Shown here one piece after another: positions 54,401-60,400 of a stretch of DNA of 64,000 nt; the stretch's first letter is position 1, and each line of letters opens with the position of its first letter. The stretch spans positions 8,976-72,975 of the forward strand of contig JBFWVI010000009.1 of assembly GCA_050246815.1 (NCBI GenBank), in the 5' to 3' direction. The position numbers are program-made. The DNA is from Bdellovibrionales bacterium (lineage in GTDB: Bacteria; Bdellovibrionota; Bdellovibrionia; Bdellovibrionales; UBA1609).

Positions 54401-57400
54401 GTTGGTCACGAGATGATTGGCGCATGTTTTTTGAAGAAGAGGAAAGCTCTTCGAAAATGCTACATCGTTTAATGGATGGCGCGGTGGGCCTGCAGATGCG
54501 CGGTCAGCCTTTGTTGATTTGGCCCGGGGCTTTGGGAATTTAGTATGGCAAAATCGGGTGCGAAGAAAAAAGCCAAGAAGCTCAAGGCGGGCACAAAGGG
54601 CAAAAGCGCCGGGCGGCGCACGGGTGTTGTCGCCCTTTCGCACGATATTTGGCCGCAAGAACGCGATGTGATGGCGCGCCCTGAACGTTACAAATATGTG
54701 CGTCAGCTGATCAAAACTGAAGGCTGTGTGTTTTGTTCGGCACTGAAGAAAGGTCTTGGGGCCGAAAGTCTGGTGCTTTATAAAAACGACAAGGCCATGG
54801 TGATGCTGAACAAATATCCATACAACAGCGGCCATTTGTTGGTGTTGCCCACGCGTCATGTCGGTAATTTAATGGAACTGAAAGACGAAGAGTATTTGGA
54901 GGTCCAGCGTCAATTGCGTCGGGCCGCCAAGGCCGTGATAGACTGCTACCAGTGCACGGGTTTTAATTTGGGATTGAACCATGGCAAAGTGGCTGGTGCG
55001 GGAATCCCGGATCACTTGCATTGGCATGTGGTTCCCCGTTGGGCAGGCGACACTAACTTTTTTCCGCTGATTGCGGAAACCAAGGTGCTGATCGAAACTT
55101 TGGATCAGACGTTTGATCGCCTAAAAAACTTTTTTAAAGAGTGAGTTGAATGGACCCATTTTCTAACAGCAGCGAATTCAAATTGGATCACATCGGCATT
55201 GCCGTACAAAACCTCGAACAGGGCGCAGCCTTTTACAAGGCCCTGGGTTTTTTGGGCATGCACATCGAAGTGGTGCCCACCGAAAAAGTGAAAGTGGGCA
55301 TGTTCGAGTTGGCCAACCAGGCTCGTGTTGAGTTACTTGAGCCGGTGACACCCGATTCTGCGGTGGGCAAGTTCTTGGAAAAGCGGGGGCCTGGTATTCA
55401 CCACATCTGCTTTAAAGTGAAAGACATTCGCTCGATCATGCGCCGTTTGGAAGAGGCCGGCATGCAGCTAATCAACAAAGAGCCCACCCCTGGCGCCCAC
55501 AACTGTCTGGTGGCCTTTGTGCACCCAAAATCGACAGGTGGCGTGTTGATTGAGCTCAGTGAATCTCAGGCCCAAGGAGACGACTGATGCAGGGGCCCCA
55601 ACTGCAGTTGGCTGTGCCGATGACCCCCATGGTGAAGCGACTCATCATCGCCAACATGGCGCTGTGGGTGGGCCTGATTTTAATCCTGCAAAAATGGATA
55701 TTGAATCAGCCGTATATTTTCAGTTGGTTTGGTTTTGTACCGTCCTCGGTTTTGCTGGATTTTTGGCTTTGGCAGCCCTTTACATACATGTTCATCCACT
55801 CGGACAATGTTTTCCACGTTATCTTCAATATGTTGGTGGTGTGGTGGTTTGGGGCCGACCTTGAGTCCCGTTGGGGAGGGCGCTTTTTTTTGCTCTACTA
55901 CCTGGTGTGTGGTGCGGGTGCGGCATTTTTGTATTTAGGCGCGGTGGTGGTTTACAGTCTGGCGACCGGTGATTCGCTGCCCTTGTCTGCCCCGGTGGTG
56001 GGCGCCTCGGGTGCTGTATTTGGCCTGATGTACGCCTATGGTAAGTTGTTTGGCGACCGCATGATCTATTTTATGATGATGTTCCCCATGAAGGCGCGCA
56101 TGTTTGTGATGCTGATCGGGGCTGTGGAGGTTTTGAACCTGCTGAGCAGTGGTCTGCAGTCGCAAACAGCCAACTTGGCCCATCTGGGGGGGCTCGTAGT
56201 GGGTTTTGGATTCTTGAAGTTTTGGGACAATTGGCAGAGCCGTGGCCCACGACGCCGGGCGGCGCAAAAGCATGGACGAACCCTGAAACTCGTAGTAAAT
56301 AACGAGACTTCCAGTGGGGATAAAAATCCCCCCCGTTACTGGAATTGATGATTTTTCTGCGGAGGTTTTAAGATGGAACTGCATGAGGCTTTACAACTGG
56401 TGAAGTTCGATAAGCGTCTGCTGGATTGGCACATCCGCCAAGGCACCATCACGGCCGCGGATGTTGAAAAGCACATCAAATCCTTGCCGGATTCATCCGC
56501 ACAAGCCATGCAAATCGAGCTGGATAGCGACAACAACAGCTCCGATTTCGAACAGTAATTCAGAAGCAGAGACCCCTGAGACTGGGGCCTGTCGGCTGAG
56601 GCCGAGAACTGTTACGGTTAGATCCAATTTTCGTTTCAAGTTGAGACAGTCCAACGTTTGAGGACGCTGTTGATTTCCTGCTCATGTATAAGCCTTGGCG
56701 CGCCAGATCCATCAAGTGCAATTTAAAAGAGACCCTATTTTGCATCACTTAAAACGGTTACAAACGGGGGACGTGTATGCGCATTTCAATCAACAAAATT
56801 GTCAAACTTCTATGCGGTATTGGTGCCGCGAGTTTGTTAATCGTAGGATTTCAAAACTGTTCGCAGGGATTTAATACACCAACATCTTCAACCTCGGGTG
56901 CATCAGGGCTTCCTGGCGGTTCTTTGCCGCCACCGCCCAATGTGACCGACGGGTTGAAACTGAATGTTTCATATGTCGACCAGACTTCTGCCCAATTCGT
57001 CACTTTCAAAGGGGTCGTCGACGCGGCTATGGCGGGTAACCCCGACTATGGTTTTGAACCTCAACACGCGGCCCTGATGTTTCGAATCACGGGTGAAACT
57101 CGCTATTGCGATTACGCAATTGAGTTCGCAGAAACCTGTCCGTCTCGTTACGAAGACGCCACCTGTGGCGTGCGCGGCGCCGAGGCCGCGATTGCCGCAG
57201 GCAATCGACCACGAGTCAGCGGAGATTCTTATCTGGAGGTCGGTCCCATTGTCGGCTCTTTGGCCTTGACCTACAGTTGGTGCGGCAATCGGATGAGCAA
57301 CGAGCAAAAAGCGCGTTGGGCCAACTATATCAATCAGGCGATTTTCAATGTTTGGCACCCCGAGGAGGCCACTTGGGGTGGCCGTGCCGCCACGTGGTCG

Positions 57401-60400
57401 GGATGGTCGATCAACAACCCGGGCAACAACTACTACTACAGTTTTTTAGAAGCGACGATGTACTGGGCCTTGGCGACCAATGACACCGCGCTATTGAACT
57501 TCCTGCGCGACAACAAACTTAAAGCTTTGACTGATTACTATGCGTTGATTCCCGGCGGTGGCAGTCTTGAAGGCACCGGCTACGGTGCCGCGCACATGCG
57601 GCTCTTTCATCTTTATCAAGTTTGGAAAGATTCAACAGGTCAGGATTTAAGCCAAGTGAGCAGTCATTTGAATGACAGCATTCGCTATTGGGTTCACGCG
57701 ACAACTCCGAATCGCGCCTATTACGCGCCGATAGGTGATTTGGCGCGGTCGTCGTTCCCGGATCTGTTCGATTACCATCGTCGGATTGTGCTGGAAGCTC
57801 GTCACCTGACACCCAACGTGGAGTTGCAAAACTTAGCTTCATGGTGGCTGAATCATATTTCAGTTCCGCGCATGAGTCGTCGTATTGATTCACAGTGGGA
57901 TCTTTTGCCGGCAGGCACGAATATGGCGGCCGCACCCAATGAACCTTTGGTTTATCGTGCGACGGGTGTGGGTCGAATCTTTGCACGTACCGGCTGGGAC
58001 ACGGGCGCCTTATGGATGACTTTTGGCGCGGGCCCTTACAATGAAAGTCACGCTCACCAAGATCAGGGCTCTTTTGAACTGGCCAACAACAACTGGCTGG
58101 CCGTGACCAATAATATTTATTCGGCCAGTGGAATAGAGCAAGCCACAGATTATCAAAACATCGTGAGGTTCGTCCAAAATGGCAACCTTGTTCCACAGAG
58201 GGAAGGCACAACCTCCACGATGGTGGTCAATCAGATGGCGCCGACTGGTGAATTGGATGTCACAGCAAATTTAACACCCGCTTATGGTGCGAACGCTCCT
58301 GTACAAAACTGGGTCAGAAACGTTCGCTTTGCTGCTCGTCGGCTGACGGTGACAGATCAGTTTGCGTTGGGCGCGAACACACAAGGTATTTTTCAAGTTC
58401 ATGTTCCGGTGCAACCCGTGGTGAATGGCAATGTGGTTACGGCGGGTGCTTTAAGAATTACTGTTTTGAGTCCGGCCAATCCGACCATCACCGTAGTCAA
58501 TCAAGGCCGATTCCGTGTGGACATTGCCGGTGGGACGGTAGGTTACACGGTTGAACTGACCGATCAATAGGGTGGGGCAGAATGCAAGACTTCAGATTGT
58601 TTAAAAAGAACCATTTGATTTTGGTCCTTTTGGCGCTTGTCACGGTGATTTTATTTCAAAACTGTTCGTCGGGTTATGACTCGACATCGACAGGCGAAGA
58701 CAGCGCTTCACAAGGCGGCGGGACAGCTCCTCCACCGGTGAATCCTCCGCCTGTCAACCCTCCACCGGGCCCGGCGCCAAGCTTGTCGGGTTTGTTCGTG
58801 ACCCTGCCGGCAACTGGCACCACGGATGTAATTCTGCATCCCAGTGCGCAGGCTGTCGGAGTCAGCAATCAAACCGTTATTTTTGGCCTGCCTTTTCCTA
58901 GGGGAGCAGTTTCGGATGCAAACTTAATTCGTGTTTTGGACGGCGCGGGGCAAGAAATACCGGCGCAGGTGAGTGCACTTAACTTTTGGCGTGATTTTCA
59001 GAACCCAGCGCAAATCATTTCCATTCGCAGTGTGCGAATAGTTTTGCAAAGAACTTTTGCGAACACCAACCCGGTCACGATTCGCATCCAGTATGGCGTC
59101 AGCAGAAATCTAAATTTAGCGGGTAACTTTGTACCCACCGACTATTGGCAATCGATTGCAGTCGGACCTAACCCCACCGAATACCCTGCGGCCGCCAATG
59201 TTCGTGAACCCATCGTCTATGCCACTCTTTCGCCGCAGTGGATGAGCCAGAGCCTTCTGCAGACTCGCACGACAACTGCGAATTCGATTGCGGCGTATGG
59301 TGTGTTCGACACGGCCTTTCTTGCTCATAGCAACACGGTTGTGACAGGCGCTGCTTACCAGACGGGTTCTGAGCCTTGGCTTTATGATCGTGCACAAACA
59401 CTTTATATTGCCTATTTTAGGACAGGCGACCTTGTTCGCCTACGTCACGCCCACCGGGCGGCTCAGTTTTATAAGGCCAACATAGGCAACAATGGGGCCT
59501 TCGCGTTGGGCGGTGATGCAAAATATGTTTATGGTCAGTCCATGTTGTATGACTATATGCTGTTGGCTGATGAGAGCCTTTTGGCCGTCATTGAGCGAGC
59601 GACGTTGCCGCACGCCGGATGGCCGACTAATTTTTCTGCGAACACGAATTTTTGGACCGAGCGCAACAGTGCTTATGCGTTGCAAGCCGTTTTGGCTGCC
59701 TTCGATGCGGTGGGAACCGCGGCGTACGCGACCCGTGCAAGAGCCTTGTTCAATAGCTATTTTTCAATGCAACAAACCCCGATTAACAATTGGCTGAAAA
59801 ACGGTTGTCCACTGCATACGGCCGCGCAACATGATCCTTCAGAAGATTTGCCTGCTGTGGTTTGTTCGCCTTGGATGGGCGCCCTGTTGTCTGAAGCTGT
59901 TTGGAAGTATTATTTACTTTCAGGTGACAACAATGCGTTGATCTATTTGGCCGATTATGCGGATTACATTCAAGCCTACGCGCTTTATTCTGAGGGCAAC
60001 GTCAGATTGCCTTATTATGGTGCAAGCAGTTTTGGCACCACAGATCCAGACGGAGACCGCGAGCATGCCTGCGACGTGTTTGGCGCCTTGGCGCGGGGGT
60101 TTTGGGCGAAACGAGCCTTGGCCCGCAATGCCGCGAACCTGCAGGCGGATGTCACCGCCTTGTTGAGTTCGTGCCAGAACAACGTCAGCTCATCAGGATT
60201 AAGTCCGCTTAGAAAGTACAGCTGGTGGTTTGGCACCAACTCCGATTTTGCCTGGTTTTTAACTCAGTGACGTTTTTGCGTTTGTGGTCAGCTATTGGGC
60301 AGTGCTTTAGTGGTTTGCGACGACTTCGGCTTGGGGCAGAGGCCGCCACTCCTCGCCTAAGATCTTGAAACTGTCGCCTTCACGACGCAGGTAAAGAGTC

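Follow-up and report, generated by a model that had tools for sequence, protein, structure and literature searches.

A conserved FQNC lipobox-like signal in Bdellovibrionales and a second signal peptidase II as its candidate partner

We describe FQNC, a signal class of the Bdellovibrionales that is distinct, order-wide and strongly conserved, and that is interchangeable in homologues with Sec signals and canonical lipoboxes. Genome context and published mutant data suggest that FQNC signals are cut by a second, overlooked signal peptidase, here called LspA2, which is needed for efficient predation. FQNC and LspA2 probably constitute a matched lipobox-peptidase pair. The motif, its conservation and its distribution are established, as are the gene linkage, the intact catalytic residues and the published fitness defects. 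Lipoprotein processing is usually seen as a single broad-specificity route; if the pairing is true, a class with its own peptidase would represent a new sorting layer at the inner membrane. Bdellovibrio bacteriovorus is a model predator for which an ordered transposon library has been described (PMC6561027), and the identity of LspA2 offers a candidate reason for the role of Bd3246 in its predation.

The FQNC signal class

The window, meaning the whole 64,000-nucleotide stretch of DNA that was analyzed, contains the following class members:

56777..58570, + strand: g00807, an ORF for a predicted lipoprotein of 597 aa with an FQNC signal, an S/G/P-rich tether and a heparinase II/III-like C-terminal region
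56849..56860, + strand: F-Q-N-C box of g00807, ending the h-region; Cys28, then S-Q-G-F
58582..60270, + strand: g00808, an ORF for a predicted lipoprotein of 562 aa with an FQNC signal and a Pro-rich tether
58654..58665, + strand: F-Q-N-C box of g00808, ending the h-region; Cys28, then S-S-G-Y
8386..9210, + strand: octahaem c-type cytochrome (8 CxxCH), the third class member of the window; FQNC at 8452-8463, Cys26 counted from the GTG at 8386
19214..20515, - strand: propeller of the glucose/sorbosone-dehydrogenase family (PF07995, E=1e-67) with the variant box AQNC (20444-20455)

The g00807 product matches PF07940 (E=3e-5), with weak HepB/HepC matches far under the cut-off. Structural neighbours in the Atlas give g00808 a RIFT-barrel plus helical-toroid fold, like that of exo-rhamnogalacturonan lyase/GH127 relatives, and its PF19501 match (E=2e-4) falls narrowly short of the cut-off. 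The first-pass annotation had stated that paralogues of both proteins have a Sec signal in place of FQNC, and identities of 79.7% (g00807, paralogue on contig C13) and 70.6% (g00808, paralogue on C12) to proteins with a Cys-free Sec signal bear this out. These two Sec paralogues are also the only clear cases of its "strand tag", and no wider family could be gathered under one simple pattern. The missed start that it proposed for the cytochrome, g00783, was recovered as the GTG at window position 8386, which shares its reading frame with the FQNC that begins at 8452.

A six-frame scan of this genome found 30 FQNC strings, 21 of which come after a hydrophobic stretch and have a start further upstream in the same frame; the remaining nine are off-frame or hydrophilic. 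The reversed control, CNQF, occurred eight times and never as a signal-type site. Chance would yield about 0.63 FQNC in 3,108 gene calls, against the 21 signal-type sites. Among 249 candidate signal cysteines FQNC was the top tetramer, as previously claimed, with 18 occurrences versus eight for the runner-up, LTAC, and versus the 0.38 predicted from positional residue frequencies. The earlier figure of 196-fold enrichment could not be reproduced; depending on the choice of null, we obtained roughly 33- to 48-fold. All 21 signals have a lipoprotein-type layout (basic n-region, h-region, Cys within ~15-45 residues), with the Cys at residue 23-43 when counted from the best-scored starts. The statement that FQNC does not occur outside signals holds for the proteome of this genome, but not for another genome, G110, where an internal in-frame FQNC lies in a long cytoplasmic-type ORF. 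We take this ORF to be glycyl-tRNA synthetase.

Variant boxes, which were picked by eye, bring the class to 33 members in this genome, 21 of them with exact FQNC, in agreement with the earlier estimate of about 30 exported proteins. The reported aromatic residue soon after the Cys was likewise found, F or Y being present at +3 to +7 in 22/33 members versus 30/157 canonical lipoproteins (p=2e-7). The codons TTT-CAA-AAC are common to 15 of the 21 FQNC sites in this genome (about 0.33 expected, P=4e-4). A DNA-level element was considered and rejected, as the DNA around the sites shows no relationship and the motif is spelled with synonymous codons in orthologues; the motif is thus read at the protein level.

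Across 121 genomes of the order, the signal pattern gave 1,264 matches against 94 for the control pattern, so that the excess reported earlier holds throughout the order. FNQC proved a flawed control, since it is a true box in some clusters of family f12. In G110, 11 signal-type sites were present among 36 pattern matches. Outside the order, no signal was found among the 54 pattern matches read. An apparent FQNC excess in one outside genome, G015, was discarded because its seven matches are one repeat at contig ends, and G040, G033 and five f9 genomes had no FQNC signals despite an apparent excess. An alignment of one orthologue family with a fixed box (22 sequences, 25-37% identical to the first, median 27%) has invariant Asn and Cys, Gln conserved at 90% or more, and boxes that are FQNC in 19, YQNC in one and YLNC in two; the Cys is at +1 in 22/22.

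The canonical lipobox, read by Lgt, LspA and Lnt, has the consensus [LVI]-[ASTVI]-[GAS]-C as quoted in PMC6952399. FQNC signals resemble it in having an n-region, an h-region, an invariant Cys and a polar tether; homologues carry a canonical lipobox at the same place, and this genome also has lgt, lspA and lnt. They differ in that none of F, Q and N conforms to that consensus and in that unrelated families have one and the same fixed tetramer. In spirochaetes, the available portion of PMC4758666 reports that Asn, Ser and Cys are allowed at -1 and that leptospiral Lgt and Lsp are divergent, its authors tying a bulky -1 residue to altered processing enzymes. Asn at -1 is common to both systems, but theirs combines a variable -1 with divergent housekeeping enzymes, whereas here a fixed box accompanies a second, fused LspA beside the normal one. 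The earlier proposal of a distinct lipoprotein signal class stands as regards an order-wide, conserved class, while Asn at -1 is not new and a role as surface tag is not supported.

LspA2 as the candidate peptidase

F-Q-N is lost at cleavage, yet it is conserved, which points to a reader at the inner membrane. The LspA2 gene of this genome lies outside the window (contig C6, 75348-76316) and encodes an LspA domain, two extra helices and a HAMP-like tail. By family profile (PF01252, 79.8 bits against a cut-off of 25), fold (model pLDDT 88; Foldseek match to LspA 5dir, TM by target 0.77) and catalytic residues, LspA2 is predicted to be a signal peptidase II with candidate peptidase activity. The tail had no PF00672 match in a Pfam search, and one Atlas neighbour at 0.83 has HAMP in 61% of its members; the name HAMP-like draws on this neighbour and on the general form of the HAMP motif. 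The catalytic Asp pair is kept in all 31 order copies compared, and 12 of 14 conserved LspA residues (list from PMC6952399) are invariant among them, the exceptions being V116, which is Ile in four, and F134, which is Trp in five. Ile103, Gln141 and Trp142, all invariant in the order, sit a single helical turn away from the catalytic layer and, judging from helix spacing, could form a pocket for amide side chains. Modelling LspA2 and an FQNC signal as a complex gave no answer either way (score 0.02).

LspA2 was found in 119/121 order genomes versus 17/120 others. Co-occurrence with FQNC inside the order is one inherited event, and LspA2 adjoined an aromatic-amide-box gene in none of 31 order genomes, which counts against pairing. 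Outside the order LspA2 is patchy, and a scan of genome contigs gave one full-length locus among 19. An [FYL]-x-[NQH]-C lipoprotein was present, mostly directly adjacent, at 20/35 non-order LspA2 loci versus 1/20 ordinary LspA loci, although the 20 reduce to ~6 independent gene contexts, at which level the contrast loses significance (p=0.09), and four of them came through a cytochrome search and are positive by construction. A second LspA2 copy in G201, next to a VQNC gene, also counts for pairing. In family f12, all 12 genomes that strongly match one cytochrome lipoprotein show an atypical box with LspA2 no more than ~5 kb away; three genomes that lack LspA2 encode distant homologues, and in these Ser stands at -1. 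Box type also tracks enzyme clade, with Q-N by the five LspA2 copies nearest the order's clade and [NT]-[QH] by 13 f12-clade copies. A phylum-wide [FY][NTK][QH]C pattern was dropped as too noisy: of 14 hand-picked f12 matches one passed the signal filter, and it resembled an SPase I protein.

By gene order, LspA2 corresponds to Bd3246 and the order-wide FQNC protein to Bd3772, and both have predation defects in published Tn-seq tables. According to the tables of PMC6561027, Bd3246 has fitness values of 0.19/0.19/0.013/0.20 in the full screen, against about 1.7 for the next gene; in one of eight measurements, that of the mini screen with planktonic Vibrio, its mutant was normal (1.27). The main text makes no mention of Bd3246 in predation. 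Values for Bd3772, a predicted lipoprotein that was missed there and entered as "No Signal Sequence", are 0.08/0.14/0.05/0.18 in the full screen and 0.006-0.10 in the mini screen. Since Bd3772 is divergent from galU, 59 bp away, and galU is itself predation-defective, its defect may be a promoter effect.

We propose that FQNC is a second lipobox class whose precursor would be exported by Sec, with the Cys most likely diacylglycerylated by one of two Lgt enzymes. The bulky F-Q-N at -3 to -1 would be a poor fit to housekeeping LspA, and LspA2 would cut instead. Outside the order LspA2 is scattered and accompanies the few lipoproteins that bear boxes of this type; in Bdellovibrionales the enzyme would have become fixed and the box would have spread to ~10-30 unrelated cargoes. 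A wider proposal, which we offer tentatively and which may well be wrong, is that LspA2 and an aromatic-amide box form an orthogonal, co-evolving pair, a mobile cassette and parallel maturation branch irreplaceable by canonical LspA, maturing predation proteins such as Bd3772, perhaps HAMP-gated and in some lineages perhaps cutting lipid-free FQN-F/A precursors.

Competing explanations

FQNC could instead be a lineage-preferred lipobox for ordinary Lgt and LspA of relaxed specificity, with LspA2 linked by history, or serving as a backup or as a sensor through its tail. We hold this to be unlikely, while granting it a real chance. It is in keeping with Asn at -1 in verified spirochaete lipoproteins, which Leptospira handles with no second Lsp reported in the available portion of PMC4758666, with the 15/35 non-order LspA2 loci that have no atypical lipoprotein nearby, and with UniRef, which already names one FQNC protein "Lipoprotein". 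In G235 no LspA2 match accompanies the 10 FQNC/YQNC signals, though the contig is broken within dacB, the gene that usually adjoins LspA2. The Tn-seq table shows insertions in housekeeping LspA, and the list of essential genes includes neither SPase II, which leaves room for overlap between the two enzymes. Relaxed specificity predicts varied residues at -3 to -1, however, and not one tetramer fixed in a family whose median identity is 27%; nor does it account for the immediate neighbourhood of box and enzyme genes in several gene contexts that are unrelated, for the tracking of enzyme clade by box type, or for the reduced genome G271, which has no LspA2 and no signals among six pattern matches. 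Multiple SPase II enzymes are likewise known from the genomes of Myxococcus xanthus and globomycin producers, but there the extra lspA copies are tied to antibiotic gene clusters, and none is described as signal-class-specific or as a HAMP-like-tail fusion in the available part of PMC8689077.

The dedicated reader might be one of two Lgt paralogues, or Lgt and LspA2 jointly, rather than the peptidase alone, which we judge improbable. At least two Lgt matches, of two sequence types, are present in 31/31 order genomes, and the substrate specificity of Lgt is reportedly determined by its arm and head domains (PMC13251419, in the part available). Most of the phylum also has two matches, with FQNC no higher than background there; the long-head form is missing from G050 and G114, which still have eight and seven pattern matches; and no lgt gene was seen in the ORF lists beside non-order atypical boxes. 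A dedicated Lgt was rejected on these grounds. Very improbable, in our estimate, is that FQN is a lipid-independent motif after whose Asn LspA2 cuts whatever follows, Cys being common and not required. Three Cys-free beta-helix proteins, with FQN-F in G045 and Bacteriovorax contig L350 and FQN-A in G154, are encoded 0.2-1 kb away from LspA2 copies that group with the enzyme of the order and count against a lipobox pairing, and a homologue encoded in this genome has an ordinary Sec signal. Against this reading, Cys is next in 19/19 signal-type FQN sites passing the filter here and in 3/3 among the first 30 of 104 G110 matches, and known LspA works on lipidated Cys (PMC8689077, in the part available). 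The three Cys-free cases go back to two separate events, and they may be boxes that have decayed and are cut by SPase I.

Cargo proteins and surface display

The first-pass annotation had emphasized FQNC as a surface tag. The cargoes are indeed rich in Ig-like, laminin G, propeller and lyase-like domains (Pfam E<=0.01 in 20/32, with many under the cut-off), and their tethers after the Cys are lysine-poor with an early aromatic residue. That FQNC itself is a surface-export tag, read before signal peptide removal, is nonetheless the least credible of the explanations weighed, and we rejected it. Residues -3 to -1 are removed with the signal peptide at the inner membrane, so F-Q-N cannot act at the outer membrane. 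Six c-type cytochromes and one GSDH-family enzyme belong to the class and may be periplasmic. The MIDAS adhesin Bd0875, shown on the cell surface (PMC11003981), has a signal ending in YVGC, and the 7,109-aa repeat protein of the window has the canonical box LSGC; FQNC is dispensable for surface display.

Sorting information that survives cleavage would sit in the tether, which is poor in lysine and contains an aromatic residue, as it also does in some canonical lipoproteins. In Bacteroidota, the export signal of surface-type lipoproteins is a biased tether right after Cys+1. A biased tether there is common to both systems, but FQN precedes the cleavage site, and the tether of the FQNC class, with few lysines and an aromatic residue early on, is no more acidic than in canonical lipoproteins. 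Export of Bacteroidota surface lipoproteins is treated in PMC13692018, as far as that text is available. Another MIDAS protein, Bd3132, is not credited with a lipobox in PMC11003981 and is exposed by its FQNC as a predicted lipoprotein that was missed.

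The FQNC box in the source genome and the order

In two predicted lipoproteins of the window, the tetramer F-Q-N-C closes the hydrophobic stretch of the signal peptide at Cys28:

56777-58570 (+), g00807, predicted lipoprotein with FQNC box
58582-60270 (+), g00808, predicted lipoprotein with FQNC box

Their Sec paralogues lack the cysteine and are 79.7% and 70.6% identical to them, as the first-pass annotation had reported. A six-frame scan of the genome found 30 FQNC strings (21 signal-type, nine off-frame or hydrophilic) and eight strings of the reversed control CNQF, none of them a signal; composition predicts 0.63 FQNC in our 3,108 gene calls. 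Among 249 candidate signal cysteines, collected without presuming any lipobox, FQNC was indeed the commonest tetramer (18; runner-up 8), against 0.38 predicted from positional frequencies, although a claimed 196-fold enrichment came out at 33- to 48-fold. Adding variants picked by eye brings the class to 33 members. The suspected missed start of a cytochrome was placed at window position 8386. Codon usage is skewed, with TTT-CAA-AAC at 15 of the 21 FQNC sites, exceeding the codon-pair expectation.

A search pattern of two hydrophobic codons plus FQNC matched 285 times in 31 genomes of the order, versus 35 for permuted FNQC. Across 121 order genomes there were 1,264 matches versus 94 for the reversed control, and 117 exceeded their own control, upholding the earlier observation. 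The same pattern matched 124 times in 120 non-order genomes of the phylum, with no signal among the 54 matches inspected; nine of the first ten order matches were signals. One order genome (G192) has no FQNC match, yet carries YQNC in seven signals. G110 shares identical proteins with named records of B. bacteriovorus; 11 of its 36 DNA matches are signal-type, and one further FQNC is internal and in-frame. One FQNC orthologue family, present in 23 of the 31 order genomes and none of the 120 others, keeps Asn and Cys in 22/22 sequences at 25-37% identity (FQNC 19, YQNC 1, YLNC 2). The proposed distinct signal class is real and order-wide, but as a variant of the lipoprotein pathway and not a new export tag. 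Seven matches in one genome (G015; L107, L111, L114, L117, L120, L122, L124) are a single repeated sequence at contig starts, probably the end of a mobile element.

A second predicted signal peptidase II and its gene neighbors

Lgt and LspA are each encoded twice in the source genome, and Lnt once. The second LspA (LspA2) carries an LspA domain, two helices and a HAMP-like tail, a name given without a Pfam match:

C6:75348-76316, LspA2 of the source genome
L004:1465-2430, LspA2

LspA2 occurs in 119/121 order genomes and 17/120 others. It has 304 representatives at E<=1e-30, and is named plain signal peptidase II in databases. Its predicted model matches solved LspA; both catalytic Asp are present in 31/31 order copies, in which 12 of 14 conserved LspA residues are invariant. 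Ile103, Gln141 and Trp142 occur in all 31 and differ from nine housekeeping copies; judging by helix spacing, they would face the lipobox pocket. Some relatives bear an extra C-terminal domain of ~190 aa. In the source genome the ileS-lspA-lgt operon (C10:38090-46622) lies between an FQNC gene and an FNSC gene, an arrangement absent at the other order lspA loci examined. One Lgt (C30:13599-14744) has a ~90 aa insertion in its head region, found in families f1, f2 and f4 and not in genomes G050 or G114.

Outside the order, 20 of 35 LspA2 loci inspected have a [FYL]-x-[NQH]-C lipoprotein, mostly 0-33 bases away, versus one of 20 ordinary lspA loci of the same family, and that one resembles an internal helix (p=1e-4). 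The LspA2 loci are dependent (14 lie in one cytochrome cluster and four were retrieved through it), and p=0.09 once they collapse to about six contexts. Within the order, 0/31 LspA2 copies have such a neighbor. Homologous clusters bearing FQNC occur in the source genome and G110; the conserved form (C43:4839-12273; L318; L262) comprises cytochrome c lipoproteins, a Tat-type protein and a small lipoprotein, joined in G110 and family f12 by a CxxCH-bearing predicted outer-membrane protein, none with a good Pfam name. In all 12 f12 genomes that strongly match the cluster cytochrome, the box is atypical and LspA2 lies within ~5 kb. Weaker cytochrome homologues have Ser at -1 in three LspA2-less genomes and likewise in a fourth whose LspA2 lies elsewhere. 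The 1.2-Mb genome G271 lacks LspA2 and has no signal in six pattern matches; G235 has no LspA2 match yet ten signals, and its contig ends inside the usual LspA2 neighbor gene.

A maximum-likelihood LspA tree of 55 rows, in which 12 of the 31 order copies were included and the fragmentary G140 copy omitted, placed housekeeping LspA on a single branch (100/99). The order-enzyme branch (92/90) holds five copies with Q-N neighbors, two of them lacking Cys, and the f12 branch (93/96) holds 13 with [NT]-[QH] neighbors; one LspA2 next to a YQNC gene falls outside, among long branches. Branch support is moderate and related copies carry the same label, so an association of box type with LspA2 branch is only suggestive.

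Readings of the box

In the established pathway, residues -3 to -1 are removed together with the signal peptide (PMC8689077, PMC6952399); therefore conserved FQN must be read at or before cleavage. We consider it probable that FQNC forms a class of lipobox with LspA2 as its main peptidase, and infer the lipidation, cleavage and location of its proteins. Ordinary processing with relaxed specificity, LspA2 being incidental, seems unlikely. The second LspA, unlike Lgt, does track FQNC. A dedicated Lgt reading FQNC is improbable, as two Lgt matches are common throughout the phylum and do not track it. Cleavage at FQN independent of lipid would find support in three beta-helix genes that adjoin LspA2 and carry FQN-F or FQN-A without Cys:

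L317:2043-3467, beta-helix protein
L350:2384-3808, beta-helix protein
L316:914-2623, beta-helix protein

Cys is nevertheless present in 19/19 signal-type FQN sites of the source genome, and we regard this reading as highly improbable. A homologue of the L317 protein adjoins the Sec paralogue of g00808 on contig C12.

That FQNC is itself a surface tag, as first proposed, is scarcely credible: Bd0875, found on the predator surface (PMC11003981) and paired with a G110 gene through Cys22 and Asp66, has YVGC, and display thus does not need FQNC. Its relative Bd3132, assigned by primer match, has FQNC; PMC11003981 credits it with no lipobox and its deletion with no defect. A counterexample in the window is a 7,109-aa repeat-rich protein (30044-51373, +), resembling a giant adhesin by eye, with the canonical lipobox LSGC at 30221.

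Asn at -1 is already known in spirochaetes (PMC4758666), a likeness to FQNC, and additional lspA copies are known from antibiotic producers (PMC8689077). Neither FQNC nor LspA2 was found described in the literature outside subscription journals, including portions of PMC13251419, PMC13721041 and PMC13692018; none of the matches listed for FQNC concerned the lipobox.

Published fitness data and cargo

The strongest new point is LspA2 as a candidate matched peptidase with a predation defect already published. By gene order, not sequence look-up, LspA2 is assigned to Bd3246, whose neighbors match those in G110, and the order-wide FQNC protein, between an M23 peptidase and galU, to Bd3772. Our searches found no literature on Bd3246 and nothing related on Bd3772. 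The PMC6561027 supplement annotates Bd3246 as 'lipoprotein signal peptidase' and 'signaling protein', records Bd3772 without a signal sequence, and gives a fitness of ~1.7 for the gene following Bd3246; neither SPase II is in the essential-gene list.

Predation fitness (PMC6561027)
Bd3246, full screen: 0.19, 0.19, 0.013, 0.20
Bd3246, mini screen: 1.27, 0.26, 0.010, 0.018
Bd3772: 0.08, 0.14, 0.05, 0.18 and 0.10, 0.016, 0.006, 0.010

Bd3772 and galU are arranged divergently; galU is defective as well, and a promoter effect is therefore possible.

Of 32 class members scanned, 20 match Pfam at E<=0.01, with many domains below the cut-off, and 12 have none. Cargo includes Ig-like (5), laminin G (3) and c-type cytochrome (6) domains, propellers and lyase-like folds. 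The tether has F/Y at +3 to +7 in 22/33 members versus 30/157 canonical lipoproteins, and Lys/Arg make up 4.8% of +2 to +8 versus 17.6%. Directly 3' of the conserved FQNC gene in five genomes, and two genes from it in G110, lies a FadL/porin-like protein (faint matches):

L150, L151, L154, L156, L162; L099:914-1741, FadL/porin-like neighbor

It is a possible partner of the FQNC protein; the Tn-seq fitness of this neighbor, assigned by gene order, is near normal.
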